Shown here: positions 7,942 through 38,479 of the stretch, one piece after another
How positions within the stretch are numbered: the stretch's first letter is position 1
Layout of the letters: every line of letters begins with the position of its first letter
From: Patescibacteria group bacterium
GTDB lineage: Bacteria > Patescibacteriota > Minisyncoccia > Moranbacterales > GWC2-37-73
Assembly: GCA_036391995.1 (NCBI GenBank)
Contig: DASVYU010000021.1
Span: 1-40,158 of the forward strand
Length of the DNA: 40,158 bases
Direction of reading: 5' to 3'
Notes under the pieces: generated by a model
Told to the model about the DNA's origin: nothing
The model's input: the letters and a program-made list of their open reading frames with translations, nothing else
Database searches by the model: none
Position numbers and translations under genes: made by a program

Positions 7942-8042
7942 AGTACTTTTATGTTATGCTAATCCACGAATTTAACACTAATCTGCGAATTACGAATTCG
8001 CAATTAGTGGATTGGCATTTATTTGCGGATTAGTATCTTTGC
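7942..8042. promoter_or_regulatory. Paralogous dyad-symmetric intergenic element E1, upstream of efp
   Basis: Shares a core with 8250-8370 and 8854-8971: atgctaatcNacgaatNNaacactaatctNcgaatt ... aattcgcaNttNgNggattggcatttattNgNggattag. It ends 10-25 nt before the start codon and carries no SD. Confidence 0.6.
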
Positions 8043-8249
8043 TTATTTAACTACAAAAGGTACCAAAGCCATCACGCGAGCGCGCTTGATAGCTTGGGAA
8101 AGCGTTCTTTGGTGCTTCGTGCAGATGCCATGGCGCTTTGGAGGATAGATTTTTCCTTGGCTGTTCATGAAGCGGCGGATGAGGTAAGCATCCTTGTAGT
8201 CGATTTTGTCCATCTTCTGATCACAGAAGTAACAAGTCTTTTTTTCCAT
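8043..8249 (-). CDS. rpsR: 30S ribosomal protein S18
   Basis: The translation (MEKKTCYFCDQKMDKIDYKDAYLIRRFMNSQGKIYPPKRHGICTKHQRTLSQAIKRARVMALVPF) is a full-length S18. Confidence 0.9.
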   Translation of the reverse strand: MEKKTCYFCDQKMDKIDYKDAYLIRRFMNSQGKIYPPKRHGICTKHQRTLSQAIKRARVMALVPFVVK

Positions 8250-8370
8250 AATTCAATGTGATGCTAATCAACGAATGGAACACTAATCTACGAATTGCGA
8301 ATGGATTTCAACAGAATTTATTCGCGATTTGTGGATTGGCATTTATTTGTGGATTCGCATCGTTTATTAT
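8250..8370. promoter_or_regulatory. Paralogous intergenic element E2, upstream of rpsR
   Basis: Same architecture as E1 and E3: two direct ctaatcNacgaat half-sites plus an inverted pair ggattgg/ggattcgca. Confidence 0.6.
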
Positions 8371-8853
8371 TTAAAACGGTACATCCTCGATTCTTACTTC
8401 GTCGGATTCCTCATCCAGATTGATGGTCGGAATCTCTTCTGCTGCTGGAGCTGCAGGTTTGCTAGCAGGCGCTGGAGTCGAGGCTTGTGGGGCAAGGCGA
8501 TTGTAGCTTCCGCTTCCCGCGCCGCTTGGGCGGCTTCCCATTTGCATATTCTCGGCAATTATTTCCGTAGTCCTTCTTTCCACTCCATCTTTGCCAGTGT
8601 AGGCACGTGTCTCTAGGCGTCCTTCGAAATAAGCCTCCTGACCTTTAGTGAGGTATTGGCCGGCTATTTCAGCTAGGCGTCCCCAGATTACGATGTTGTG
8701 GAACTCAGTCTTTTCCTGCTTCTGACCGCTCTTGTCCATCCAGGTGCGTCCGGTGGCTAAACCGACGGTCGCTACCGTCTGTCCTGAAGGAGTGGTGCGG
8801 AGTTCGACGTCACGCGTGAGGCGTCCGATGAGTTGGACTTTGTTCAAATTCAT
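8371..8853 (-). CDS. ssb: Single-stranded DNA-binding protein
   Basis: OB-fold N-domain (MNLNKVQLIGRLTRDVELRTTPSGQTVATVGLATGRTW), a Gly/Pro/Ala-rich linker and an acidic tail ending DEESDEVRIEDVPF. Confidence 0.9.
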   Translation of the reverse strand: MNLNKVQLIGRLTRDVELRTTPSGQTVATVGLATGRTWMDKSGQKQEKTEFHNIVIWGRLAEIAGQYLTKGQEAYFEGRLETRAYTGKDGVERRTTEIIAENMQMGSRPSGAGSGSYNRLAPQASTPAPASKPAAPAAEEIPTINLDEESDEVRIEDVPF

Positions 8854-8971
8854 AGAATTTGTGTGATGCTAATCTACGAATGCAACACTAATCTACGAAT
8901 TGCGAATGGATTCAAGTTTGTTTTATTCGCAATTTGCGGATTGGCATTTATTGGCGGATTAGCATATTTAA
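8854..8971. promoter_or_regulatory. Paralogous intergenic element E3, upstream of ssb
   Basis: gatgctaatctacgaatgcaacactaatctacgaattgcgaatgg ... attcgcaatttgcggattggcatttattggcggattagcata. Confidence 0.6.
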
Positions 8972-9577
8972 TTAGATGTTGAGCAATTCGTCCAGCTGCT
9001 TGTCGATGTCCTTGGACTCGGCTTCTTTCTTGCTCTTTTTTGGAGCTTCTTTCACCTCTTCAACTTTGGTTTCCTCGACTTTTTCTTCTTTGACTTCTTC
9101 CTTAATTTCAGCTATAGGCTTAACTTCCTCTTTGACTGCTTCCTTGGCTTCTGGCTTTGGGGCAGCTTTCTTTTCTGGGCGCTGAGCTTTGACTGGAGCT
9201 TGCTTGGCATTTCCGAGCTCTTGCTCTTTGCGGCGCTGCTTGGCTCCGAGATCTGGCAGATCTTCAGTCTTCACGATCAGGAAGCGGAGCACATCATTGT
9301 TGAGGTTCAGTTTGTTGGTGATGGCTTGGATGCCGAATTCTTTCTCAGCATTCTTTTCGTCAGCCCAATATTCGACCTCAGGAAGTTCGAAACGGCGGGT
9401 GATGTAGGTTCCGCGATTCTGGTGCTTGATTTCATAGGCAAGCTTCCTTTTTTCAACAATCTCTTCTTCGAGTATTGTTGCTCCTTCTTGAGTGAGCATG
9501 GCGCTCACGCTATTGCGGATCGCGTCGAGATTGGCCTCTTGGCGTTCTCCGACGAGATAGAACAGTTCGTACTGCAT
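8972..9577 (-). CDS. rpsF: 30S ribosomal protein S6 with a long K/E/A-rich C-terminal extension
   Basis: The S6 core begins at MQYELFYLVGERQ (ATG at 9577; the ORF tool start at 9592 adds MYNKI). A low-complexity KEEVKEE tail of about 90 aa follows. Confidence 0.85.
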   Translation of the reverse strand: MQYELFYLVGERQEANLDAIRNSVSAMLTQEGATILEEEIVEKRKLAYEIKHQNRGTYITRRFELPEVEYWADEKNAEKEFGIQAITNKLNLNNDVLRFLIVKTEDLPDLGAKQRRKEQELGNAKQAPVKAQRPEKKAAPKPEAKEAVKEEVKPIAEIKEEVKEEKVEETKVEEVKEAPKKSKKEAESKDIDKQLDELLNI

Positions 9578-9598
9578 AATTTTATTATACATTATTTA

Positions 9599-9660
9599 TT
9601 AACGGGTTAACGGGTTAACGCGTTAGGGATTCCAACTCGTGAACTCGTGAACTCGTGAAC
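9599..9660. promoter_or_regulatory. Upstream module, left copy: 3x CCGTTAAC-type tandem octamers and 3x CTCGTGAA tandem octamers; reads toward rpsF
   Basis: ttaacgggttaacgggttaacgcgtta ... aactcgtgaactcgtgaactcgtgaa. The reverse complement is present at 16120-16182. The distance from the GTTAAC repeats to the rpsF ATG is 21 nt. Confidence 0.6.
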
Positions 9661-9735
9661 TGTTGAATAAATAAACCCTCCAATAAAGAAAGCCGCGCCT
9701 TTTGGAGGATTCTTCCGACTTATCCTTTTGTTAAG

Positions 9736-9758
9736 CCCCGAAGGGGTCCCTTCGGGAC
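9736..9758. other. Two adjacent tetraloop-type hairpins in an untranslated region
   Basis: ccccgaagggg followed by gtcccttcgggac, a C(UUCG)G-type loop, between divergent rpsF and the island promoter. Confidence 0.3.
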
Positions 9759-9822
9759 AAAAAAGGCGAGTCAGAATCGGACTTTCTAAATTGTTTAAAT
9801 AGTATACACTATTGACATAATT

Positions 9823-9857
9823 TGTCAAATATGCTAGATTACACAGTTCACATTTTT
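9823..9857 (+). promoter_or_regulatory. Candidate promoter with an overlapping palindromic operator, for the flotillin island
   Basis: TTGACAtaattTGTCAA (an inverted repeat over the -35), a 17-nt spacer, then TAGATT. Further inverted repeats downstream: gagtatttttt/aaaaaatactc and ctggaa-N6-ttccag. Confidence 0.4.
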
Positions 9858-10019
9858 GATCTTTAGAGTATTTTTTGTAGTGCGAAAAAATATAAAAAAT
9901 ACTCTGGAAGTCAATTTCCAGGCTAGCAATCTTTACAACTGAATTAATGAAATGAAAGGAGGGAAAAGGATTTGAGATTGTAAAATCCAAGAGAGGACTG
10001 AGTGGAAGTTAAACATCAA

Positions 10020-11981
10020 CGACAAGAAAAGGAGAGTAAGATGAAAGAAATGATTCCGCATTTGCCCTCATGGATCCCGTACCTGCTGTTTCTTCTGCCC
10101 GTTGCCTTCTGCATCGTCTTCTACCGTCTCGTGATCCGGATCGGCGGAGTGGTCATCATTCCGGAAGATTCCATAGGGATCGTGAACAAGAAGTTTGTGC
10201 TCTGGGGGACAAACAAGAACTTGCCCGACGGCAAGATCATCGCCCTCAATGGCGAGGCTGGCTGGCAGGCCGACGCGCTTGCTCCCGGTGTGCATTACCG
10301 GAAGTGGCCATGGCAGTACGAGATCAAGATTGAGAAGATGTTCGTCGTGCCGGCTGGTAATATCGCTACTGTGTATGCCAGAGACGGCGTCGCGATCGAG
10401 GGAGGCCGAGTTCTCGGCAGGAAGGTTAACTGCGACACATTCCAGGATGCCAGGAAGTTTCTGGTAAACGGAGGGGAGCGCGGTCAGCAGATCGCCTTCA
10501 TTCCCCAGGGAACATACCGTATCAACACCGCTCTGTTTGAAGTAAAGACGGAAAAGGTCTACGAAGTTCCGAGCGGGAAAGTCGGCGTTATCACGACCAA
10601 GGATGGCAAAGAACTGCCCAAGGACGAGATCGCCGGTGAGAAAGTAGATGGGCACGATTCCTACCAGAACGGCCAGGCTTTTATGGACAATGGCGGCTGG
10701 AAAGGGCGTCAGGCGCAGGTCATTCTTGCCGGACGGTATTTTATCAACCCGTTCTTTGCCGAAGTGGAACTGGTCGACATGACGGAGGTTCAGATCGCGC
10801 ATGTAGGCGTCGTCATCCAGCTCTACGGCAAGGCTGGTACCGATGTTTCCGGTGATGATTTCCAGCATGCCAGCCTGGTTGGACAGGGAGAGAAGGGCGT
10901 CTGGAGGGACCCACTTGACCCTGGTCTCTATGCGATCAACCCCTGTACCCACAAGGTTGTCCAGGTGCCCACGCAAAACATCGTCCTTAACTGGGCCGAT
11001 GATACCTTTGAATCGCACAGGTATGACGAAAAACTGAGCTCGATCACTGTCCGTTCCATGGACGGTTTCAGCTTCACGCTGAACGTCAGCCAGATCATCC
11101 ACATTTCCCGTAACTATGCTTCCTACGTGATTGCGCAGTTCGGCAGCGTGGAGAGTCTGGTCAACAACGTGTTGTCGCCGCTGATCGGAAACTACTTTCG
11201 AAACAGTGCGCAGAACAGCAATGTGATCTCTTTCCTGAGCGAGCGCAACCAGCGCCAGGATCAGGCCAAGGACAAGATCCAGGAAGTTTTGACCAAGCAT
11301 CATGTCACTTCGGTCGACACGCTGATTGGCGACATTAATCCGCCGGAAGAACTGCTCGAACCGCTCAAACAGAAACAGATCGCCGAGCAGCAGAAGCTCA
11401 CCTTCGCTGTCCAGCAGGAAGCTCAGGTGGAACGGCAAAAACTGGAACAATCTAGAGCCATGGCTGAAACCCAGGCGAGCGTCGTTTCTTCGGAGCGCCA
11501 GGTGGCGATCAAAAAGTTCGGTGCTGAAGCTGTCCAGGAAGAAGCCAAGGGTACGGCCGGCGCCAAGACGATCAACGCCAAGGCGGACGCTGAGGTGCTG
11601 AAAGTCGTCGGTATGGCCGAGGCTGAGAAAATCAAGGCTGTCGGTGGTGCCGAAGCGGATGTTATCAAGCAGAAGATTGATTCCATGGAAGCCGGTAACT
11701 ATGCCCTGGTTCTCGTGGCGGAACATCTGGCTAAAGCTGGGGTGCCCTTGGTACCGCAGATCACGGCTGGTGGAAGTGGTGGTGCTGAAGGCGGGCTGGT
11801 CAATGTCCTCCTCGGAACGCTGCTTCACGACAACCTGAAAAAGGCGGCTGTAACACCAGCTGCGGCTCCGCAGGCTGCCCATCTCGAAGCCGTAGCAGCT
11901 GCTGAACCGGCTGCAGCACCCGCTGCCTCGGCGTCCGAAGAGAGGAATGAGCCGGCTGCAGGCGAATCTGTCGAGGAATAA
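10020..11981 (+). CDS. Flotillin-like SPFH protein (YqiK/FloT family), in a high-GC island
   Basis: N-terminal TM (IPYLLFLLPVAFCIVFY), an SPFH core, and a flotillin-type C-terminal AEAE region (VVGMAEAEKIKAVGGAEADVIKQKIDSMEAGNYALVLVAEHLAKAGVPLVPQI). Strong SD (aaaaggagag) before ATG 10020. Local GC about 57%. The ORF tool start at 10002 is 6 codons longer. Confidence 0.75.
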   Translation, partial: RQEKESKMKEMIPHLPSWIPYLLFLLPVAFCIVFYRLVIRIGGVVIIPEDSIGIVNKKFVLWGTNKNLPDGKIIALNGEAGWQADALAPGVHYRKWPWQYEIKIEKMFVVPAGNIATVYARDGVAIEGGRVLGRKVNCDTFQDARKFLVNGGERGQQIAFIPQGTYRINTALFEVKTEKVYEVPSGKVGVITTKDGKELPKDEIAGEKVDGHDSYQNGQAFMDNGGWKGRQAQVILAGRYFINPFFAEVELVDMTEVQIAHVGVVIQLYGKAGTDVSGDDFQHASLVGQGEKGVWRDPLDPGLYAINPCTHKVVQVPTQNIVLNWADDTFESHRYDEKLSSITVRSMDGFSFTLNVSQIIHISRNYASYVIAQFGSVESLVNNVLSPLIGNYFRNSAQNSNVISFLSERNQRQDQAKDKIQEVLTKHHVTSVDTLIGDINPPEELLEPLKQKQIAEQQKLTFAVQQEAQVERQKLEQSRAMAETQASVVSSERQVAIKKFGAEAVQEEAKGTAGAKTINAKADAEVLKVVGMAEAEKIKAVGGAEADVIKQKIDSMEAGNYALVLVAEHLAKAGVPLVPQITAGGSGGAEGGLVNVLLGTLLHDNLKKAAVTPAAAPQAAHLEAVAAAEPAAAPAASASEERNEPAAGESVEE

Positions 11982-13833: not shown

Positions 13834-13987
13834 TGGACAATTCGGTTGTAGAGTTGTAATATATATAACTAAGTCTAAGTTTTAAATTTTAAGTTTGAAA
13901 TGAGTTTTAAATGACTAAATGTTTTAAAACTTAGGCATTTAGGATTGAATTAAAATTTAAAAATTAGCCCTTAAAACTTGTGTAGTC

Positions 13988-15946
13988 ATGGATTTTGAGA
14001 TTTCTAGCAAATATAAGCCTGCCGGCGATCAGCCGCAGGCCATTGAATTGCTCACATACGGGCTGGAACATCAGCAGAAGTTTCAGACGCTTTTGGGTGT
14101 GACTGGATCGGGCAAGACTTTCACGATTGCCAATGTGATCGAGAATGTGCAGAAGCCCACTTTGGTGATCGCGCCCAACAAGACTTTGGCAGCGCAGCTG
14201 GTGCAAGAATTTCGCACCTTCTTTCCCAAGAACGCTGTGGAATATTTCGTGTCCTATTACGACTATTATCAGCCGGAAGCCTACATCGCTTCGACTGATA
14301 CATATATCGAAAAGGAAGTACAGATCAATGATGAGATCGACAGATTGCGTCATGCTGCAACCTCCGCTTTGCTTTCCAGGCGCGATGTGATCATCGTTGC
14401 ATCGGTTTCCTGCATCTACGGCTTGGGAAGCCCGGACTATTATCGTGAAGGGACTGTTTCGGTTGTTGTCGGAGAAAAAGCTTCACGCGAAGCGATCATG
14501 AAAGGCATGATAGATATGCAATATCATCGCAGTGAGGTTCTGGAGCGCGGCAAGTTCCGCGTGATCGGCGACACGATCGAAGTGATCACGCCTGGCAGAG
14601 AGATCGTGTCACGCATCGAATTGGAAGATGGCTTGGTCAAAAGAATCCAAGAATATGATTTCCTGACGGGCGAAAAACTGGGAGATCTCAAGCAGACGCT
14701 TATTTATCCAGCCAAACATTTTGTGGTGCCAGAACCTGTCATGCAGGCAGCACTGGAAGAGATTGAACAGGAAGCCAAGGAAAGAGTGGAATATTTCAAA
14801 GCCAAAGGCAAGCTTCTGGAAGCGGAGAGGATTTCTCGCAGAACCAAACAGGATCTGGAGATGATGCGCGAGATCGGCTATTGCAATGGCGTGGAGAATT
14901 ATTCGCGCTATCTGACAGGCCGTAATGAAGGCGAGCCGCCATACACTTTGGTGGATTATTTCCCGGAAGATTTTCTTTTGGTGATCGATGAATCGCACGT
15001 GACCATCCCGCAGCTTAGTGCCATGTATAACGGGGATCGTGCCAGAAAAGAAGCGCTGATCGAAAACGGCTTCCGTCTGCCGAGCGCTTTTGACAATCGC
15101 CCGCTCAAATTTCCGGAATTCGAATCGCACATCAACCAGCTCATTTTCACTTCGGCTACTCCTGGAGCATATGAGAAGCAGAATTCTTCCCAGATGGTGG
15201 AACAGATCATCCGCCCGACGGGGCTCATCGACCCGGAGCTCATCATCAGGCCAGCCAAGGGGCAGGTCAAAGATGTGCTGCCTGAAATAGAGAAGGTCAT
15301 CGAGAAAAAGGAACGCGTCTTGATCACGACGCTCACTAAGAAGATGGCGGAGGATCTGGCGGAATTCTTGAAGGAACATGGCATCAAATGCGAGTATCTG
15401 CATTCCAGTGTGGACACTCTGGATCGCATCAGGATATTGGAAGGCCTCAGGCGAGGGGATTTCGACGTGCTGGTGGGAGTCAATCTTCTGCGCGAAGGCT
15501 TGGATCTGCCGGAAGTTTCCCTGGTAGCCATTCTGGATGCGGACAAGGAAGGATTCTTGCGCAGCGAGACTTCGCTCATCCAGACCATAGGCCGCGCCGC
15601 GCGTAACGTGAACGGCAGAGTGCTTCTCTATGCTGACAACATGACCGGCTCCATGCAGAGGGCGATCGATGAGACCAATCGCCGCCGGGAGAAGCAGCTG
15701 GCCTACAACAAGAAGCACGGCATCACCCCTAAGACTATCCAGAAGAACATCAAATCCATCGTGGATCACGAGATCAACCCCCAGGTACCGACTGATTTTT
15801 CACAAGTGGAATCCCTAGAGGACATTGCTGGCTACATCAAACAGAAAGAGAAAGAGATGAAAGACGCGGCCCGTGCCCTGGAGTTCGAGAAAGCGGCTCT
15901 TATCCGCGATGAGATTTCCCAGCTCAGGAAATTGCAAATAAAATAG
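13988..15946 (+). CDS. uvrB: Excinuclease ABC subunit B
   Basis: Helicase motifs (GVTGSGKTF; DESH), a beta-hairpin region and a C-terminal UVR domain ([18 protein letters not shown]). Confidence 0.95.
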
Positions 15947-18029: not shown

Positions 18030-20948
18030 ATGGAAGACAAGATAATAATCCGCGGGGCAAGGGAACATAATTTGAAGAACATAAACCTTGATCTGCCGCG
18101 AGACAAATTCATAGTGTTTACGGGACTTTCAGGGTCGGGAAAATCGACCCTGGCTTTTGATACGATTTTCGCTGAAGGACAGAGGAGATATTTGGAAAGC
18201 CTTTCAAGCTACGCGCGCCAATTCTTGGGGCAGATGGACAAGCCGGATGTGGATCATATCGAAGGGCTTTCGCCGGCTATCTCCATCGACCAGAAATCTA
18301 CCACGCACAACCCGCGCTCGACCGTGGGAACTGTGACGGAAATCCATGATTATCTGCGTCTGCTCTATGCCAAAATCGGCGTTCCGCATTGTCCGGTCTG
18401 CGGACGTGAGATTTCTAAACTATCCACTGATGAAATCGTGGATCGCATTTTGGAGCTGTCTGAAAAACATTCGCAGACAATTGAGATCCTTGCTCCGGTC
18501 GTGCGCGAAAGGAAAGGTGAATATCTGGCGCTTTTGGATGACATGTGGAAAAGAGGATTTTCCGAGGCGACAGTGGATGGCAAACGCATGCAGCTGGAAG
18601 ATTTCAAGGATATGAAACTTGAACGTTACAAGAAACACAGCATCGACATTGTGGTAGACAAATTGACTGTCAGTGAAGATAGCATCACGCGCATATTCGA
18701 AGGCGTGGAAAGATCGCTTCGCATGGCGGAAGGATTGGTGAAAATAAGATGCATCTCCAATGAAGCTAAAAGCCAAAAGCTAGAAGCTAAAAGCCATTCG
18801 AAGTGTTTTGCGGAGCAGATTTTCAATCAGAAACTTTCCTGTCCGATCCATGACATCCAATTTCCGGAATTGGAGCCGCGTCTTTTCTCTTTCAATTCTC
18901 CCTATGGCGCCTGTGAAGCTTGCGAAGGATTGGGACTCAAGAAGGAGATCGATCCGCATCTGATCATGCCTGACATAAACAAGACGATCGCGGAGGGAGG
19001 TTTTGCTCCTTGGAATTTCAAGAAAAACAACTATTATGGCGGCGTGATACTGTCAGCCGCACGCTTTTTCAATGTGCCCGACAATGTGCGCTTGCGTGAT
19101 CTGCCCAAGAAGAAGCTCAATCTAATGCTCTACGGAACCACCGAAGAAGGCATGGAGGCGACAGAGGAAGATGCTGAGGAGATTCCGATCACCATAAGGG
19201 CCAAGACTGGTACTAATTGGAAATTCTACATGGAATGGCACGGCGTGCTTGGTTTCATGCGAGACAGGTATTTTAAGACCGAGTCAGACACAGTGCGTGC
19301 GAACATGGAGAAATATATGTCGCAGAAGCCTTGCAGTGTCTGCAAAGGCTCACGTTATAAGCGCGATGTGCTTTTGGTGACGGTGGGAGAAAAAAACATC
19401 CATGAAGTCTCCACTTTGAGCGTGTCTGATTCCAAGCAATTCTTCGAAGATTTGAAACTGACCAAAAGAGAAACCATGATTGCGGGCAGGATCCTCAAGG
19501 AAATAAACGCGCGCCTGACATTCTTGAACAATGTGGGCTTGGATTATCTCACGCTGCATCGCGCGGCTTATTCTCTTTCAGGTGGTGAAGCACAGCGCAT
19601 CCGTTTGGCTTCGCAGATCGGCTCGCAATTGGTGGGAGTCTTGTATATCCTGGATGAACCATCGATCGGACTGCATGCGCGTGACAACACCAAGCTCATA
19701 GAGACTCTTAGGCAATTGCAGGAAATAGGCAACACTCTGATCGTGATCGAGCATGATGAAGAAATGATGCGGCATGCAGATTGGTTGGTGGACATCGGAC
19801 CAGGCGCCGGCAAGCATGGCGGCGAAATCATTGCACAAGGCAAACCTGAAGATGTTATCGCAAGCAAGAAATCCCTGACGGGCAAATACCTGCGAGGCGA
19901 ATTGGAAATCGAAATTCCCAAGATGCGCCGCGCAGTCAATAAGAAAAAATTCATCACGGTGAGAAATGCCAGTGAGCATAATCTCAAGAATGTGACAGCG
20001 GAATTTCCGCTTAGAGTTTTCACTTGCGTGACAGGTGTTTCCGGCTCGGGAAAATCGACTTTAGTGGAAGACACTTTGTATAAAGCTTTGGCCAACAAAC
20101 TGCACCGCGCTTTGGATGTGCCTGGCAGGCATCAGGAAATCGTGGGTATCGAGAACATCAACAAAGTCATCATGATCGACCAGTCGCCGATCGGACGCAC
20201 GCCGCGCTCGAATCCTGCGACATATACGGGACTTTTCACGCATATCCGCGAACTGTTCGCGCAGACAAAAGATGCCAAACTCCGAGGCTATGGTCCAGGC
20301 AGGTTCTCATTTAACATTGCCGGCGGGCGCTGTGACAACTGTTCCGGAGAAGGATTCTTGAAAATAGAGATGCAATTCATGCCAGACGTCTATCTGCCTT
20401 GTGATGTCTGCTCAGGTAAGAGATATAACAGTGAGACATTGCAAGTGAAATATAAAGGCAAGAATATTTCCGAAGTTCTTGGCATGACTGTTTCGGAAGG
20501 CGCGGAATTCTTCGCAGCTTTTCCTAAGATCGCTGAACCATTGAAAGTTTTGGAAGATGTAGGATTGGGCTATATCGAGCTAGGGCAGAGCGCAACGACT
20601 CTCTCTGGAGGAGAAGCGCAGAGAATCAAGTTGGCAGCGGAACTTTCGCGCCGTGCGACGGGTGACACGCTGTACATTCTGGACGAGCCAACCACGGGCT
20701 TGCATTTCGATGACATTAAAAAACTTTTGGGAGTATTGAATCGTTTGGTGGATGCTGGCAACACAGTGGTTGTCATTGAGCATAATATGGATGTCATCAA
20801 GACTGCAGACTGGATCATAGACATGGGACCGGAAGGTGGAGATGGCGGAGGACGCATCGTGGTAACAGGCTCGCCGGAAGAAGTCATCAAATATCACAAG
20901 GAAAGCTACACGGCGAAATATCTGAGAGAAGTGCTCAAGAAAAAATAG
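18030..20948 (+). CDS. uvrA: Excinuclease ABC subunit A, full-length class I type
   Basis: Two ABC modules ([10 protein letters not shown]; [12 protein letters not shown]), signature LSGGEAQR twice, zinc-finger and insertion domains. Contains an in-frame tandem-repeat insert at 18762-18800. Confidence 0.95.
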
Positions 20949-21009
20949 AAATGATTATTCCACAAAAAGACGATCGTCTAAAAGTGGGATAATGCTTTGA
21001 GAAGAATAA

Positions 21010-21045
21010 AAAGCTGATGCACGCGTGGGCGCATCAGCTTTTTTG
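21010..21045 (+). terminator. Rho-independent terminator after uvrA
   Basis: AAGCTGATGC-acgcgtgg-GCATCAGCTT followed by T6. Confidence 0.65.
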
Positions 21046-21061
21046 TTACCAGATTCCTGAT

Positions 21062-21469
21062 TCAGGATACTGACTCTAAAAATGTCTTCAGAGAATGATA
21101 GATGACTCTCAGGAAGACCACATTCTCTCCCGGAAGTTTTTTCTCCAGCGTGGCATTTCTGAAGAACTCTTCCAGTGTCACTTTATCGGGAATCTGCTGG
21201 AGTTCTTCGAATTTCATGCCATTGGAGTTGGCAATTTGCGGTATGTATTGGCAGAGCATGTTATCCAGGCGGTCTTTGAGCCTGGAGTCTATGTTCCTGT
21301 TCCAGATGGCAGTCTGGATCTGCTGCAGAAGCTGCTTCACCATCCTGTCGCTGCCCACGAGCCCGACAATAGACGGACAATACTTGCCGAAGCTGACTTG
21401 CTCGAGCATGGGCAAAGCCCTTCGAAAATCATTTCTGCTGGCTGGGCGGTTCATTTTTGCGGCCATCAT
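21062..21469 (-). CDS. Hypothetical protein, 135 aa: gene B of a higher-GC two-gene insert
   Basis: Own SD (aaaggagaag) before ATG ATG. No recognisable domain. GC near 50%. Confidence 0.45.
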   Translation of the reverse strand: MMAAKMNRPASRNDFRRALPMLEQVSFGKYCPSIVGLVGSDRMVKQLLQQIQTAIWNRNIDSRLKDRLDNMLCQYIPQIANSNGMKFEELQQIPDKVTLEEFFRNATLEKKLPGENVVFLRVIYHSLKTFLESVS

Positions 21470-21511
21470 CTTCTCCTTTGGGTTGGTGTTGAAATCATTT
21501 CGTTTTACACA

Positions 21512-21856
21512 TTATTCATGGCTGTCGAGGATTTGCTTCTTGATCGCGTTGATTCTGGAGTCTTCGATGAAACTGAAGTTTTTGAATAAGGAAGTGAGTC
21601 TGTGGTAGAGCTCGTAGAAAGCATCGGACGTAGTTGAGTTGTTGGTATACTTTACGTCGGTATATTTGCCGATAATCTCCAGCATCCGGCATGTTTCTTT
21701 TTCGTGATCCGCAACGACATCATCGGACATCCGGAAATATTTGATGCAGTCCTGGAGCCATTCGTGGTAGGTGCTGCGTTCTGTGGGAAGCAGGAGTGTT
21801 TGTTCGAGATCATCCATGAAATCCCTTCCTTGCGGGGTTAATTTCCACTTGACCAT
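21512..21856 (-). CDS. Hypothetical protein, 114 aa: gene A of the two-gene insert
   Basis: SD aaaggagga 6 nt before the ATG. No recognisable domain. Co-oriented with gene B and 42 bp upstream of it. Confidence 0.45.
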   Translation of the reverse strand: MVKWKLTPQGRDFMDDLEQTLLLPTERSTYHEWLQDCIKYFRMSDDVVADHEKETCRMLEIIGKYTDVKYTNNSTTSDAFYELYHRLTSLFKNFSFIEDSRINAIKKQILDSHE

Positions 21857-21940
21857 AATCCAATCCTCCTTTGCCTTTTTAAGGCAATCAGTTGTAATAT
21901 TCAGTTGGATAGGTACGACATTATATTATACTCCTTTTTT

Positions 21941-23329
21941 ATGAATTTGTCCAGTATAAAGCAAAAAATAGCTCAGTTGCCTCAGAATCCGGGGGTATAT
22001 TTTTTCTGCGACTCGGCAGGGGCAATCCTCTATATAGGCAAGGCGACGAATTTGAGAAGCCGGGTTTCTTCCTATTTCCGTGGTTTTGGTGCGGGGGAGT
22101 TGAGCTCCCAAATGCAAAAAGGGAGCTCAACTCCCTTTGTGGCTGGAAGAAGTGAGTGGATTGGTTTAATGGTTTCGCAAATTGCAAATATTGATTTTCA
22201 AGAAACAGACAGCGTCTTGGAAGCGCTCATTCTGGAAAGCAACCTGATAAAGAAGCATCAGCCCAAATACAACACGCTGGAAAAGGACGACAAGAGCTTT
22301 GCGTATTTTGTGATTACCAAAGAGGATTTTCCACGCATCTTGATTCTTCGAAAAACTGATATTGATTTTGAAAATCTAGAAGCTAAAAGCTATAAGCTAA
22401 AAGCTATCTTCGGCCCATACACAAGCAAATACCAGATGGAAACGGCGCTCAAAATCATGCGCCGGATCTTTCCGTTCCATGCGCTCAAGCAGAAAACAGA
22501 AAAAGGCTGTTTGGATTTCCAGTTGGGCATGTGTCCTGGTCCATATGAAGGCGCGATCTCCAAAGAGGATTACAAAAAGAATATCCGCGGCATCCGGATG
22601 ATCCTGGAAGGCAAGAAAAAAAGATTAGTGACGACATTGGAAAAAGAGATGCAGATCCTTGCCAAAAAAAACGAATTCGAAAAAGCTGCCGAGATTCGCA
22701 ACAAAATATTCGCACTCAATCATATTATGGATATTGCGCTTATGACTAGAGATTTTGATAATTTAGAATTTCCAATTTCGAATTTCGAATCAAATCAGAA
22801 TGACATAATTTCGAAAAATAAATCATTAGAAATTCATTCAAAATTCAAAATTCAAAATTCAAAATTGTTCAGGATTGAGGCATATGATATTTCAAATATT
22901 TCTGGACAAAATGCAGTGGGCTCAATGGCGGTTTTTGAAAATGGAAAACCTGCTAAATCACAATATCGCAAATTCAAGATAAAAACGATTGAAGGCAGCG
23001 ATGATGTGGGCAGCATGCGAGAGGTCTTGTCACGGCGCTTCCACAATGATTGGCCGATGCCTGATCTTATTCTGCTCGATGGTGGGCAAGGGCATTTGAA
23101 TATGGCAACAAAACTGTTATTGGAAGAAATGGGCTTGGCTTTGAATATCGCAGCTGTTGCCAAAGGTCCCACCCGCAAGAAGTTGGATGTGCGAATCGCT
23201 GGATCTGTGCCACCTTCAGTCAAGTATATTCTGGCGGATCAGAATCTTTTGAAGTCCATCATGGATGAAGCGCATCGTTTCGCGATCACATTCCATCGCA
23301 AGCTCCGCCGCAAAAACGCTTTGCAATGA
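21941..23329 (+). CDS. uvrC: Excinuclease ABC subunit C, compact form lacking the C-terminal HhH domain
   Basis: GIY-YIG (GVYFFCDSAGAILYIGKATNLRSRVSSYF ... EALILESNLIKKHQPKYN), a UVR domain (EFEKAAEIRNKIF) and an RNaseH-like endonuclease domain (RIEAYDISN...). Likely start at ATG 21941. Carries three in-frame inserts (22095-22135, 22372-22404, about 22760-22870). Confidence 0.85.
   Translation: MNLSSIKQKIAQLPQNPGVYFFCDSAGAILYIGKATNLRSRVSSYFRGFGAGELSSQMQKGSSTPFVAGRSEWIGLMVSQIANIDFQETDSVLEALILESNLIKKHQPKYNTLEKDDKSFAYFVITKEDFPRILILRKTDIDFENLEAKSYKLKAIFGPYTSKYQMETALKIMRRIFPFHALKQKTEKGCLDFQLGMCPGPYEGAISKEDYKKNIRGIRMILEGKKKRLVTTLEKEMQILAKKNEFEKAAEIRNKIFALNHIMDIALMTRDFDNLEFPISNFESNQNDIISKNKSLEIHSKFKIQNSKLFRIEAYDISNISGQNAVGSMAVFENGKPAKSQYRKFKIKTIEGSDDVGSMREVLSRRFHNDWPMPDLILLDGGQGHLNMATKLLLEEMGLALNIAAVAKGPTRKKLDVRIAGSVPPSVKYILADQNLLKSIMDEAHRFAITFHRKLRRKNALQ
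22095..22135. repeat. Perfect 15-bp-arm palindrome inserted in-frame in the uvrC GIY-YIG region
   Basis: GGGAGTTGAGCTCCC-aaatgcaaaaa-GGGAGCTCAACTCCC. It encodes extra residues (GELSSQMQKGSSTPF) between SYFRG and the conserved MVSQIANIDF. Confidence 0.8.
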
Positions 23330-23426
23330 GCCAAAAAGAAAAAAAGAGCTTTTTCGTATTAATTGATATGTTTGGGCAAAAACTGACGCCGCTTGCTCTT
23401 CGCAGCAAGTGTGTCATAATTGGAAC

Positions 23427-23825
23427 ATGAAAATATTGCGAAAACAATCTGTTGCTGTTTTGGTTCTCATCTCACTGTTTACTTTAGTGAGTGGTCTTTG
23501 TTATGGAACATTTGCGTCTGCTTCTACTTCTGCGCAATATGCTGCCATGCCTGCTATGGACATGTCGCATTGCGGCAATCAAACCGTTTCTTTTGAAAAA
23601 GGCAGCCCTTTGAACAATGCTGTGATGCCATGCTGTGTGGATCGCCATGATGGACAAGCCACAACTCTGCCGACCATTTTGAAAGACAAGGTTAAATTTT
23701 CTGCCGACTTGATTGAAGTGCAACCCTTGCAAACCAGTCTTGATTTTGCTGTGCAATGCAATTCTTTCGCGCATGCTCCGCCGGGGCAGCCGGACATACT
23801 TTCTTCTGTTGTTAAAATAGAATAA
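23427..23825 (+). CDS. Small secreted Met/Cys/His-rich protein, putative metal (copper) binding
   Basis: Signal peptide (MKILRKQSVAVLVLISLFTLVSG) and MPAMDMSHCG / MPCCVDRHD motifs. Sits directly upstream of the copper cluster. Confidence 0.4.
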   Translation: MKILRKQSVAVLVLISLFTLVSGLCYGTFASASTSAQYAAMPAMDMSHCGNQTVSFEKGSPLNNAVMPCCVDRHDGQATTLPTILKDKVKFSADLIEVQPLQTSLDFAVQCNSFAHAPPGQPDILSSVVKIE

Positions 23826-35644: not shown

Positions 35645-38479
35645 ATGCCTCTCAAAAAAGCTGCTTCCAAAAACGACAACGAGATCGTGATAAAAGGTGC
35701 CAGGGTGAATAATCTAAAAAACATCGACGTCAATGTGCCGCGTGACAAATTCGTGGTAATCACAGGCCTTTCAGGGTCGGGAAAATCTTCTTTGGCTTTC
35801 GACACCATTTATGCCGAAGGCAATCGACGCTACATGGAAGGACTTTCCTCGTATGCGCGCAATTTTTTGGATCCTTCCGTGAAGCCGGATGTGGATAAGA
35901 TTGAAAATCTTTCGCCTCCGATCTCCATTGATCAGAAAAGCATCTCACGCTCCCCGCGTTCAACAGTGGGCACGCTGACGGAAGTGTATGACTATCTTCG
36001 CATTCTATATGCCAAGGTGGGAGTGTTGCATTGTCCGAATTGCGGTGCATCCATGCAAAGAAGAAGCAACAAAGAAATTTTGGATGATATTCTGGCTTTG
36101 CCGCATCATACTCAGATTGCAATCCTTGCTAAACCGAAAGAGAACCTGGTTGGAAAGGATCTTTTGAAACATATCCAGCAATTGGGTTATGCACGGGTGC
36201 GTATGGGCGGGCCTGCCTCGACTCGCGAAGACGCATCGTCGACGCGAGGCGGGAAGATGCTGACTGTGGCTGAAGCTTTGATGTTTGAAGAGCAGGAGAT
36301 GAGCCAAGACATCGACATGGTAATCGATCGTGTGATTTTGGATATCAAAAATCCGGACACTGAACGCATGGTGGACTCAATTGAAACAGCTATGAAAGTC
36401 GGTGGCGGCGCCATGAAGATGCTGATCGACAATAGTGAAGAGAGATCGTATAATCAGGACTTCTTCTGTTCTAATTGCGGCGTGAAAATCAAGGAAGTTA
36501 CTCCGCGCCACTTTTCTTTCAATAGTCCCGAAGGAGCGTGCGACAATTGCTCTGGTTTGGGATATACCTTGAAAGTCAACGAAGAGCTTGTGATTCCAAA
36601 CAAGAACCTGTCGCTTCTGGAAGGCGCGATCCAGCCTTGGAGCAAATCCGGAGGCAAGATCAATGGGCAAAGCAGCCAGATCCAGATGCTCAAGGATATT
36701 GCTAAGAAATATAAATTTTCCGTCAGCGTGCCTGTGAAAAAACTTACCAAGCAGCAATTGGACATAGTACTGGATGGCAAGGATGGTTTTGAAGGTGTTA
36801 TTCCTGCTTTGGAAGAAAAATATGCCCAGACCAAATCGGAATATATGCGCACGGAAATCGAGAAATATATGACTGCACATGTGTGCGGCAGCTGCATGGG
36901 CAAACGTCTCAAGAAAGAATTCTTGGCTGTCGAGATCCAGGGCCAAGGCATTGATGATCTGGTAAATATGGGAGTGACCAAGCTCAAGGAATTTTTCGAG
37001 GGCGCTGAAAATTGGCAACAGACTTTACAGGAAAAAGAAATTACGCGGCCAATCGTGCGCGAGATGCTCAGTCGTCTCAGAGCTTTGGAAAACGTGGGCT
37101 TGGAATATCTGAATCTGGGACGTTCTGCTCAGACCATTTCCGGCGGAGAAGCGCAGCGCATCCGTTTGGCTGCCCAATTGAATTCTCAACTCATGGGCAT
37201 CGTGTATGTTTTGGATGAACCGTCTATTGGTTTGCATAATCGCGACACGGAAAAACTCATCAAGACCATGCAATCTTTGCAAGGGGTTGGTAATTCCTTG
37301 GTGGTGGTTGAGCATGATGAAGCTATCATTAAATCGGCAGATTGGATCATCGATATGGGACCCGGTGCAGGTGAGGAAGGCGGCATTGTGGTTTTTGAAG
37401 GAGACTACAAGAAGCTGCTCAAATCCAAGAATCTTACTGCGCAATATATTTCCAGAAAAAAGAAAGTTTCCGACAAAAAATCCTATCGCAAAGGCTCTGG
37501 CCAACATATCGAGATCATCGGCGCAGAGGAACACAATCTTAAGAATGTGGATGTGTCCATTCCGCTGGAAAAATTCGTAGCAATCTGCGGCGTGTCAGGC
37601 TCAGGCAAGTCCACGCTTGTCAAAGACATTCTCTCCAAAGCGCTTTCGCGTCATTTCTATGGCACCAAGGATCTGCCTGGTAAGCACAAGAAGATCAAAG
37701 GTTTTGAACATGTCAAAAAAGTCATTTCCATCAATCAGAATCCGATCGGACGCACGCCGCGCTCCAATGCGGCAACCTACACTGGAGTGTTCTCATATAT
37801 CCGTGATCTTTTTGCGCAGACGGAAGAATCCAAGAATCGTGGCTATACTGCCAGCCGTTTCAGTTTCAATATGAAAGGCGGACGCTGCGAGGTTTGTCAG
37901 GGAGAAGGCTACAAGAAGATCGAGATGCATCTTTTGCCTGACATGTATGTTAAATGTGAAGCATGTGACGGAACGCGTTTTTCCAAGAAGACTTTGGAGA
38001 TTGAATACAAGGGTTACAATATAGCGCAGGTCCTGGATATGGATGTGCGGTTCGCTCTCAGATTCTTTGCGCGCCATCCTTTGATTGCGGAAAAACTCAA
38101 GACCATGGAAGATGTGGGATTGGGATATTTGAAACTGGGGCAAAGCGCAACAAATCTTTCAGGTGGTGAGGCTCAGCGCATCAAGCTGGCCACGGAACTG
38201 GCTAGAAAATCTACAGGCAACACCTTGTATATCTTGGATGAACCGACAGCTGGTCTGCATTTCGATGACATACGCAGATTATTGGTTGTACTCAATGCTT
38301 TGGTAGACAAAGGCAATACGGTTTTGGTGGTGGAGCATAACCTGGATGTTGTGCGTGACGCTGATTGGGTGATTGAGTTGGGACCGGATGGCGGAGACAA
38401 AGGCGGCTATGTCAATTTCGAAGGTACACCGGAAAAGCTCAAGAAGGATAAGGAAAGTTGGACAGCGAAGTATCTGTAG
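35645..38479 (+). CDS. uvrA: Second full-length UvrA paralog
   Basis: [10 protein letters not shown] / [19 protein letters not shown] twice, and the zinc-finger and UvrB-binding-region-length insertions all present (944 aa). It lacks the repeat insert seen in the first uvrA. Confidence 0.9.
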   Translation: MPLKKAASKNDNEIVIKGARVNNLKNIDVNVPRDKFVVITGLSGSGKSSLAFDTIYAEGNRRYMEGLSSYARNFLDPSVKPDVDKIENLSPPISIDQKSISRSPRSTVGTLTEVYDYLRILYAKVGVLHCPNCGASMQRRSNKEILDDILALPHHTQIAILAKPKENLVGKDLLKHIQQLGYARVRMGGPASTREDASSTRGGKMLTVAEALMFEEQEMSQDIDMVIDRVILDIKNPDTERMVDSIETAMKVGGGAMKMLIDNSEERSYNQDFFCSNCGVKIKEVTPRHFSFNSPEGACDNCSGLGYTLKVNEELVIPNKNLSLLEGAIQPWSKSGGKINGQSSQIQMLKDIAKKYKFSVSVPVKKLTKQQLDIVLDGKDGFEGVIPALEEKYAQTKSEYMRTEIEKYMTAHVCGSCMGKRLKKEFLAVEIQGQGIDDLVNMGVTKLKEFFEGAENWQQTLQEKEITRPIVREMLSRLRALENVGLEYLNLGRSAQTISGGEAQRIRLAAQLNSQLMGIVYVLDEPSIGLHNRDTEKLIKTMQSLQGVGNSLVVVEHDEAIIKSADWIIDMGPGAGEEGGIVVFEGDYKKLLKSKNLTAQYISRKKKVSDKKSYRKGSGQHIEIIGAEEHNLKNVDVSIPLEKFVAICGVSGSGKSTLVKDILSKALSRHFYGTKDLPGKHKKIKGFEHVKKVISINQNPIGRTPRSNAATYTGVFSYIRDLFAQTEESKNRGYTASRFSFNMKGGRCEVCQGEGYKKIEMHLLPDMYVKCEACDGTRFSKKTLEIEYKGYNIAQVLDMDVRFALRFFARHPLIAEKLKTMEDVGLGYLKLGQSATNLSGGEAQRIKLATELARKSTGNTLYILDEPTAGLHFDDIRRLLVVLNALVDKGNTVLVVEHNLDVVRDADWVIELGPDGGDKGGYVNFEGTPEKLKKDKESWTAKYL

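Follow-up and report, generated by a model that had tools for sequence, protein, structure and literature searches.

The uvrA and uvrC genes of Patescibacteria stand next to each other almost everywhere; what, then, are the two small genes that separate them in contig DASVYU010000021.1 (assembly GCA_036391995.1), and how did they come to be there? The window, i.e., the whole stretch of DNA that was analyzed, was the entire 40,158-bp contig of a Patescibacteria metagenome-assembled genome. The two genes, hereinafter referred to as gene1 (114 amino acids, aa) and gene2 (135 aa; its product is called p135), had been taken in a preliminary description for a foreign cassette, perhaps a toxin-antitoxin (TA) or small defence module. 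Comparison with related loci supported another origin well: the pair is an old, native and fast-evolving resident of a variable slot in one subclade of Moranbacteria. It was equally well supported that gene1 has persisted in this slot more than any other occupant and that its partners are interchangeable. A recent foreign or defence cassette was largely excluded, and the products are not repair enzymes. As a reading of the whole, we propose, at slightly less than an even chance, a native, clade-restricted accessory operon with interacting acidic and basic products, rather than a recently acquired foreign cassette.

Coding status and composition of the gene pair

Both open reading frames (ORFs) were located exactly where the preliminary description had placed them, co-oriented with each other and antisense between uvrA and uvrC (Table 1). 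The Shine-Dalgarno (SD) sites that it had named were also found: AGGAGG (21870-21865) is positioned 8 nt ahead of the ATG of gene1, and GGAG (21476-21473) is positioned 3 or 6 nt ahead of the two candidate ATGs of gene2. The NCBI call for gene2 begins at the second ATG (21466) and comprises 134 aa, which is probably the form translated, because the second ATG has the better SD spacing. A 42-nt spacer separates gene1 from gene2, with one promoter and one terminator for both.

Codon-usage log-odds ranked the annotated minus frame as the best of six for both ORFs, weakly so, and the coding scores per codon were 0.08 and 0.01 for the pair versus 0.16-0.49 in 18 long genes of the contig. Two antisense ORFs of 164 and 168 aa opposite p135 were interrupted by stop codons at homologous loci. 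The ratio of nonsynonymous to synonymous substitution rates (dN/dS) among close relatives was 0.14-0.26 for gene1 and 0.10 for the partner of the type found in related locus L004. Both gene1 and gene2 are real protein-coding genes, because the minus frame was conserved in homologues and dN/dS was low among close relatives.

That the true gene is the antisense 164-aa ORF (21095..21589, plus strand), the 135-aa ORF being non-coding, was scarcely credible. This ORF is listed by the automatic Logan gene calls on two short, identical contigs (L001 and L002), and its coding score (0.040) was near that of p135 (0.079). However, it is p135 that has a strong SD and shares an operon with gene1; the homologues kept the p135 frame better (48% identity to L094:3626-4033, E 4e-36) than the shadow frame (33%), and every antisense frame of L094 and L089 was broken by 2-7 stops. 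L001 and L002, which come from separate sequencing runs (Logan SRR10159350 and SRR10159353), showed zero amino-acid differences from the window region in tblastn, and the listing of the shadow ORF in place of p135 is probably a misannotation in that resource. Long shadow ORFs are not unusual on the contig, because a 604-aa antisense ORF (10068-11882, minus strand) spans nearly all of the 659-aa SPFH/Band-7 gene (10002-11981, plus strand). The 164- and 168-aa ORFs opposite p135 are shadow ORFs of the same kind.

The composition of the pair was native, with no foreign signature. The GC contents of gene1 and gene2 were 45.5% and 48.8%, the contig being at 44.5% and uvrA at 48.3%; the figure of about 50% given in the preliminary description was roughly right, but it did not set the pair apart. 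The 795-bp segment occupied by the pair had a GC content of 0.468 (z = +0.47 against 795-bp windows of the contig), and its 3-mer distance ranked at the 48th percentile among equally sized windows. In the window, the pair was not flanked by direct or inverted repeats, and neither a tRNA nor an integrase was present; no relatives of the pair were found in phage and plasmid collections by tblastn, and scans of metagenomes and viral sequences gave no further gene1-type loci.

The uvrA-uvrC junction and its occupants

A total of 80 GTDB loci were retrieved with the window UvrC as the query. In Patescibacteria, uvrA was immediately upstream of uvrC nearly everywhere, and in about 25 loci the two genes overlapped or were no more than about 30 bp apart. 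Tight adjacency is the ancestral state in this group, and the pair had been rightly described as an insertion relative to it. The gap at the junction ranged from -46 to +5084 bp among the relatives, with unrelated ORFs in L004-L014 and L032-L035. In the clade nearest to the window (C-terminal part of UvrA at least 87% identical), gaps of 128, 467, 670, 765, 801, 828, 911, 1023, 1494, and 2140 bp were observed; L008, L019, and L020 of the same clade still had tight junctions, and all outgroup clades were tight. The preliminary description had suggested looking for relatives with adjacent uvrA and uvrC. Such adjacency was found elsewhere, but the window's own subclade often carries gene1 or other cargo in the gap. 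The cargo of relatives comprised unrelated small ORFs, most of them antisense, and the junction can be described from these alignments as an islet between core genes, in which the flanks are conserved and the cargo varies and is unrelated.

L009 was the only relative with an insertion sequence (IS) transposase in the gap (7950-9998); the transposase, with rve and helix-turn-helix (HTH) domains, was accompanied by a stand-alone GIY-YIG gene. The gap of L014 contained an S-adenosylmethionine-dependent methyltransferase (1345-2127). Mobile DNA does use the uvrA-uvrC junction. Other cargo included proteins of about 100 aa with three predicted transmembrane segments in L010 (4978-5289, minus strand) and L006 (9018-9320, minus strand), which shared 27% identity, and proteins with an N-terminal hydrophobic segment and HEPR/HHPKK-like C-termini in L006 (9528-9899 and 8546-8992, minus strand) and L007 (9593-9922, minus strand). 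In addition, dispersed and partly palindromic repeats of about 40-170 bp, resembling repetitive extragenic palindromes or miniature inverted-repeat transposable elements, occurred in the gap and elsewhere in L005 (3409-3780), L006 (17100-18098), L007 (9320-9357), L009 (2010-2096 and 8406-8466), and L032 (5454-5860). These repeats yield spurious conserved "ORFs" on both strands, and none of them was present in the window.

Word-indexed protein searches returned self-hits only for each of the window proteins. A tblastn search against the fetched loci detected a gene1 homologue at the same position in L004 (36% identical), a profile of these two sequences led to two further members, and the resulting four-sequence profile, scored against 1.84 billion representatives, returned 12 sequences at E<=0.001, of which one was spurious. 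The gene1 homologues were P0003-P0012, P0014, and P0015. By these searches, gene1 belongs to a tiny family of about 100 aa that is restricted to Moranbacteria. In the window, L004, L083, L084, L085-88, L089, the P0009 contig, L093, L094, and L098, the gene stood in the gap, on the strand opposite to uvrA and uvrC; with L083 and L084 treated as close to L004, this amounts to 9 of the 11 lineages examined. A tenth lineage (L095) carried it beside uvrB in the same cluster of nucleotide excision repair (NER) genes, and L090-92 was the only lineage with gene1 outside an NER context. Among the GTDB representatives, it was present in L004 only and absent from 79 of the 80 loci, and carriers were interleaved with non-carriers in the UvrA tree.

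L003, the neighbour of the window in the UvrA tree, had a gene-less gap of 128 bp (9873-10020). This gap keeps the TATAAT region and the leader palindrome, then a degenerate SD with an ATG, and directly after these the terminator. It is a deletion scar of the cassette, which is therefore old in this lineage and was lost in place. Together with the shared position in 9 of 11 lineages, the scar shows more generally that the insertion is old and that the gene has been kept or lost where it stands. These two observations and the native composition contradict the term "foreign" used in the preliminary description. Conserved presence with native composition, which that description had named as evidence against its own reading, was found in part, as persistence within one subclade with native GC and 3-mers.

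The gene1 homologues were only 24-47% identical to the window protein. Between the window and L098, in which the N-terminal 282 aa of UvrC are 70% identical to those of the window, the alignment was collinear, with nucleotide identities of 72% for the 5' part of uvrC, 74% for the spacer, and 57% for gene1 (24% at the amino-acid level). On this comparison, gene1 diverges much faster than its surroundings, yet it is under purifying selection at short distances. Pairwise divergence of gene1 was not correlated with that of the UvrC N-terminus (rho -0.27, not significant), for which a noisy segment of 100 aa was used. The AlphaFold2 (AF2) model of gene1, built from the four-sequence alignment, had a predicted local distance difference test score (pLDDT) of 84 and a predicted template modelling score of 0.74, with predicted helices at 8-20, 29-43, 51-65, 74-92, and 100-113 and a short beta pair formed by the N- and C-termini. 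The predicted fold is a generic up-down helical bundle. Among 13 gene1 sequences, the invariant or nearly invariant positions corresponded to the hydrophobic core and one Thr, and no conserved set of catalytic-looking residues was present. The gene1 products were mostly acidic, with isoelectric points (pI) of 4.9-6.4.

For p135, two relatives were detected, one downstream of gene1 in L094 (3626-4033; 48% identity, E 5e-40) and one upstream of gene1 in L089 (7408-7824; 27-28% identity over the full length). The three members share an invariant LR[VI]xxH[SC]L motif in the C-terminal last helix. The single-sequence AF2 model of p135 was all-helical and poor (pLDDT 52), too weak for a structure search. 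Different partners accompanied gene1 elsewhere: proteins of 149-162 aa in L004, L083, and L084, and a 95-aa protein in L085, while extra genes were present in L089 (127 aa) and L094 (110 aa); gene1 had no partner in L093, L095, and L098. In L004, gene1 and its partner overlap by 4 nt. Homology of p135 to the L004-type partner of 149 aa, or of gene1 to either partner, was considered and rejected (BLASTP E 1.1, hmmsearch -0.3 bits, hhalign probability <1%). The partners p135, L094_135, and L004_149 were basic (pI 9.1-9.7), and an acidic upstream product was combined with a basic downstream product in the window, L094, L004, and L083. Both the p135-type and the L004-type partners were seen only together with gene1.

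The predicted sigma-70-type promoter of the operon matched the consensus at 11 of 12 positions in a promoter scan, and its -35 element falls on the opening codons of the oppositely oriented uvrC. The arrangement TTGAC(A)-17-TATAAT was kept in each of the eight gene1 loci that were aligned. In L005, L006, L007, L010, and L032, this promoter and leader preceded unrelated first genes, and the leader of the relatives takes the form TATAATATAA..CGT.C....ACAAC...GCC-loop-GGCAAA..GGAG. A GCC/GGC or CCC/GGG stem with an A/U loop before the SD of the first gene was observed in L003, L005, L006, L007, L010, L032, L089, and L098. Some compensatory changes (U-A, C-G, A-U) were found at the next pair of the stem. 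Folding z-scores of the leader hairpin were weak and its recurrence was not statistically convincing; the palindrome may be a hairpin in the RNA or, alternatively, a site bound by a protein.

On the plus strand, the 10-mer GTTGTAATAT occurred in exactly two copies in the window, in the same orientation, at 21891-21900 and in the upstream region of uvrB (13853-13862). The latter copy supplies the -10 element of a TGGACA-17-TAATAT promoter, and the copy at 21891-21900 may correspondingly be the -10 region of a uvrC promoter lying inside the gene1 leader. This candidate (TTGCCT-18-TAATAT) was not called by the consensus scan. The 10-mer may represent a promoter or regulatory element shared by repair genes. 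At the other end of the gap, one bidirectional intrinsic terminator is common to the convergent uvrA and gene2, and similar hairpins followed gene2 in L004 and gene1 in L093 and L098. Scans for Rfam families and tRNAs gave no hits in the region, in the window as a whole, or in four or six related loci.

Genomic neighbourhood of the slot

The nearest UvrC relatives of the window among the GTDB species representatives belonged to Candidatus Moraniibacteriota and were at most 65% identical. The neighbourhood was that of a core chromosome, comprising genes for an SPFH protein, UvrB, a thioredoxin-like membrane protein, and UvrA, the gene pair, uvrC, copper-handling genes, and a second UvrA paralogue. 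The start codon of uvrC is probably the ATG at 21941 (MNLSSIKQK...), as judged by alignment with relatives, and not the TTG at 21905 used by the ORF lister. Coordinates of the features are given in Table 1.

Table 1. Features of the uvrA-uvrC junction and its flanks in the 40,158-bp window.
Feature	Position	Strand	Remarks
uvrB	13988-15946		Upstream of uvrA
uvrA	18030..20948	+	Conserved left flank of the slot
Bidirectional intrinsic terminator (predicted)	21008..21043	both	Stem of 13-15 bp, A- and T-runs on either side; inverted repeat I2
gene2 / p135 (NCBI VF817_02530)	21062..21469	-	135 aa, pI 9.4, basic, helical; ORF and SD
gene1 (NCBI VF817_02535)	21512..21856	-	114 aa, pI 5.3, acidic, cytoplasmic; ORF and SD
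Operon 5' leader (putative)	21857..21918	-	Putative start site near 21918
Leader hairpin/palindrome (candidate)	21887-21871	-	TTGCCTT-AAA-AAGGCAA, directly upstream of SD AGGAGG
Candidate uvrC promoter	21871..21900	+	TTGCCT 21871-21876, 18 nt, TAATAT 21895-21900; inside the gene1 leader
Operon promoter (predicted, sigma-70 type)	21925..21953	-	TGGACA 21953-21948, 17 nt, TATAAT 21930-21925
uvrC	21941..23329	+	Conserved right flank of the slot

The second UvrA paralogue of the window (35645-38479, plus strand) comprises 944 aa with UvrA_DNA-bind and UvrA_inter domains. Relatives including L004, L012, L013, and L016 also encode a second UvrA paralogue, which follows uvrC at a distance of about 4.4 kb; these copies were about 46-48% identical to the window UvrA, and many Moranbacteria relatives share this arrangement of the neighbourhood. 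Between uvrC and genes for HMA, DsbD, and cupredoxin proteins and a copper P-type ATPase, the window (23409-23825, plus strand) and L089 (4207-4653, minus strand) encode a small secreted protein with the cysteine motif MPCCV[DE]R (30% identity, E 2e-20), which may be a copper-handling accessory protein. Just past uvrC, L089 (5383-5838, plus strand) and L094 (1356-1826, plus strand), both of which carry gene1, encode members of an orphan family of about 150 aa (39% identity) that is missing from that position in the window.

Comparison with known systems and possible function

No credible match in Pfam, NCBIfam, PADLOC, or PHROG was found for the window proteins, all 13 gene1 relatives, or the alternative partners, in agreement with the preliminary statement that neither product resembled a recognised family, and PADLOC gave zero hits for both window proteins. 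Profile searches against the PDB returned weak helical or coiled-coil noise, the best hit being a viral phosphoprotein (E 0.0012), and a literature search found nothing on such genes. In PADLOC, L094_135 gave a hit of 16 bits (E 8.7e-4) to an oligonucleotide cyclase, confined to the helical part of the latter, which was dismissed as noise; the hit did not extend to p135 or L089_138, and the nucleotidyltransferase core was missing. Structure prediction, also proposed in the preliminary description, gave a confident helical bundle for gene1, which matched no TA or defence fold, and a poor model for p135. The matches of gene1 to Avd of diversity-generating retroelements, UPF0147, and the helical part of YicC were generic at the level of the bundle, with Foldseek E values of 1.4 or more and identities of 3-14%; neither a reverse transcriptase nor repeats were noticed beside the pair, though no systematic search for them was made. 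Neither window protein was homologous to UvrABCD, Mfd, or Cho, and no conserved co-occurrence with the NER machinery across taxa was found.

In type II TA systems such as Phd/Doc, RelBE, and HigBA, the antitoxin gene comes first and the toxin gene second. The pair resembles these systems in consisting of two small, co-oriented and closely spaced genes of one operon, with a strong predicted promoter and a terminator of its own, in the acidic upstream and basic downstream products, in the solo occurrence of the upstream gene, and in partners that differ among relatives. It differs from them in lacking homology to any toxin or antitoxin family, and in being single-copy, confined to one chromosomal junction of one subclade and not seen on mobile elements, with the order reversed in one relative. 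p135 further resembles the HEPN toxins (HepT of MNT-HEPN) in its length of about 135 aa, its predicted all-helical structure with Arg and His in the last helix, and its position after a gene of about 100 aa. However, HEPN proteins have the Rx4-6H motif, whereas a regex scan of the three members of the p135 family found R-x3-H only (RVIYH, RVIHH, and RIMSH). HEPN or NTase_sub_bind domains were not detected in Pfam at E<=10 for p135 and at E<=0.1 for its relatives, and there was no NCBIfam HEPN match. In contrast to MNT, gene1 is predicted to be an all-helical bundle and lacks the GSx10DxD nucleotidyltransferase motif; confidence in the p135 model is low.

Variable islets between conserved core genes are described for defence islands and integration hotspots. 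The slot is similar to these in its conserved uvrA and uvrC flanks, its unrelated cargo, the IS, methyltransferase, and repeats of some genomes, and its patchy occurrence within the clade. It is dissimilar in that the cargo is just 1-3 tiny orphan genes, with no integrase, tRNA, or attachment repeats in the window and no recognised defence genes, and in that one conserved resident promoter and leader, overlapping the uvrC start, precedes all cargo. While an accessory islet between core genes is a known arrangement, the tiny uncharacterised family pair is new, and the conserved resident promoter and leader are unusual.

The accessory operon that we propose occupies a normally fused uvrA-uvrC junction that was opened in the ancestor of the subclade. 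A strong predicted promoter overlapping the uvrC start codon points outward into the gap, where small orphan genes that differ between genomes follow the conserved leader and SD and end at the bidirectional terminator. The two products may interact, the constant acidic gene1 product binding or neutralising a variable, often basic, downstream partner, in a logic like that of type II TA systems or of an adaptor and its effector, under one promoter. Transcription of the operon would probably interfere or be coordinated with uvrC expression, which is plausible because the operon promoter and the putative uvrC promoter lie within each other's leaders. Within this proposal, a TA-like pair of an acidic and a basic protein would be the most likely specific mechanism, albeit a doubtful one. 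The TA or defence assignment of the preliminary description retained circumstantial points (sizes, operon layout, acidic and basic products, and solo gene1) but found no family homology, DNA-binding fold, mobility, or phage or plasmid relatives. A more elaborate version, in which gene1 and swappable small effectors constitute a new TA- or immunity-like module with a four-helix-bundle neutraliser, and in which the interlocking of its promoter with that of uvrC couples it to expression of the repair nuclease, was considered quite unlikely.

Several observations weigh against interacting products of the TA type. There was no match in sequence or fold to any TA, defence, or repair family, and the predicted long-helix bundle of gene1 lacks the HTH, ribbon-helix-helix, AbrB, or Phd/YefM DNA-binding domains. 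The gene order varies, the p135-like gene of L089 being upstream of gene1, and acidic partners occur too (L085, L089, and L094_110). The statement that p135 never occurs without gene1 rests on three cases and on searches of low sensitivity. In addition, a single copy at a nearly fixed site that is absent from phage, plasmid, and viral collections is unlike typical mobile TA loci.

Three other explanations were weighed against the accessory operon. It is unlikely, but the least so of the three, that the genes are young or weakly constrained orphans without any module function, the gap being a permissive transcribed site at which small ORFs arise, drift, and are replaced. Their orphan status in a tiny family, coding scores (0.01-0.08) below those of housekeeping genes (0.16-0.49), very fast divergence, and generic helical fold agree with this explanation, as do the unrelated orphan ORFs behind the same promoter in sister genomes. 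It is opposed by dN/dS values of 0.10-0.26, which indicate selection on the protein sequence, by the persistence of the family across lineages whose UvrC is about 59-70% identical to that of the window, and by the conserved hydrophobic-core and motif positions together with a fold confidently predicted from just four sequences. An NER accessory factor or regulator, in which gene1 with or without its partner binds UvrA or UvrC or tunes uvrC expression, was judged improbable. The position of gene1, which lies between uvrA and uvrC in 9 of 11 lineages and beside uvrB in L095, would suit such a role, as would the interlocking of the operon promoter with the uvrC start and the putative uvrC promoter, and the 10-mer in common with the uvrB promoter region; yet a fixed position may be plain inheritance in a syntenic clade, and the simplest view of the shared 10-mer is that it is a -10 promoter element. 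Moreover, most sister genomes, some with tight junctions, lack gene1, which indicates that it is dispensable for NER, a drift to 24-47% identity would be surprising in a partner of the highly conserved UvrA (87-90% identical in its C-terminal part), and the context of gene1 in L090-92 is unrelated to NER.

Least probable of the three by a clear distance is the insertion at a hotspot of a foreign, mobile and recently acquired cassette or of a small defence system against phages. The junction does act as a variable islet, with the IS and GIY-YIG gene in one relative and the methyltransferase in another, and one p135 homologue gave the weak PADLOC hit mentioned above. Nevertheless, the GC content and 3-mers of the pair are native; the window has no flanking repeats, tRNA, or integrase; its proteins have no PADLOC hit and no relatives in the phage, plasmid, and viral collections searched; and the pair has long resided at one site with a conserved promoter.

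The present value of these results is mostly descriptive: they concern a promoter-and-leader slot with rapid turnover of orphan genes in one subclade of Moranbacteria. If the TA-like or the repair-coupled function proves true, gene1 and its partners would represent a new small-protein family from the poorly understood Candidate Phyla Radiation bacteria, and the locus would be an example of a conserved repair operon being split and rewired by an accessory one.

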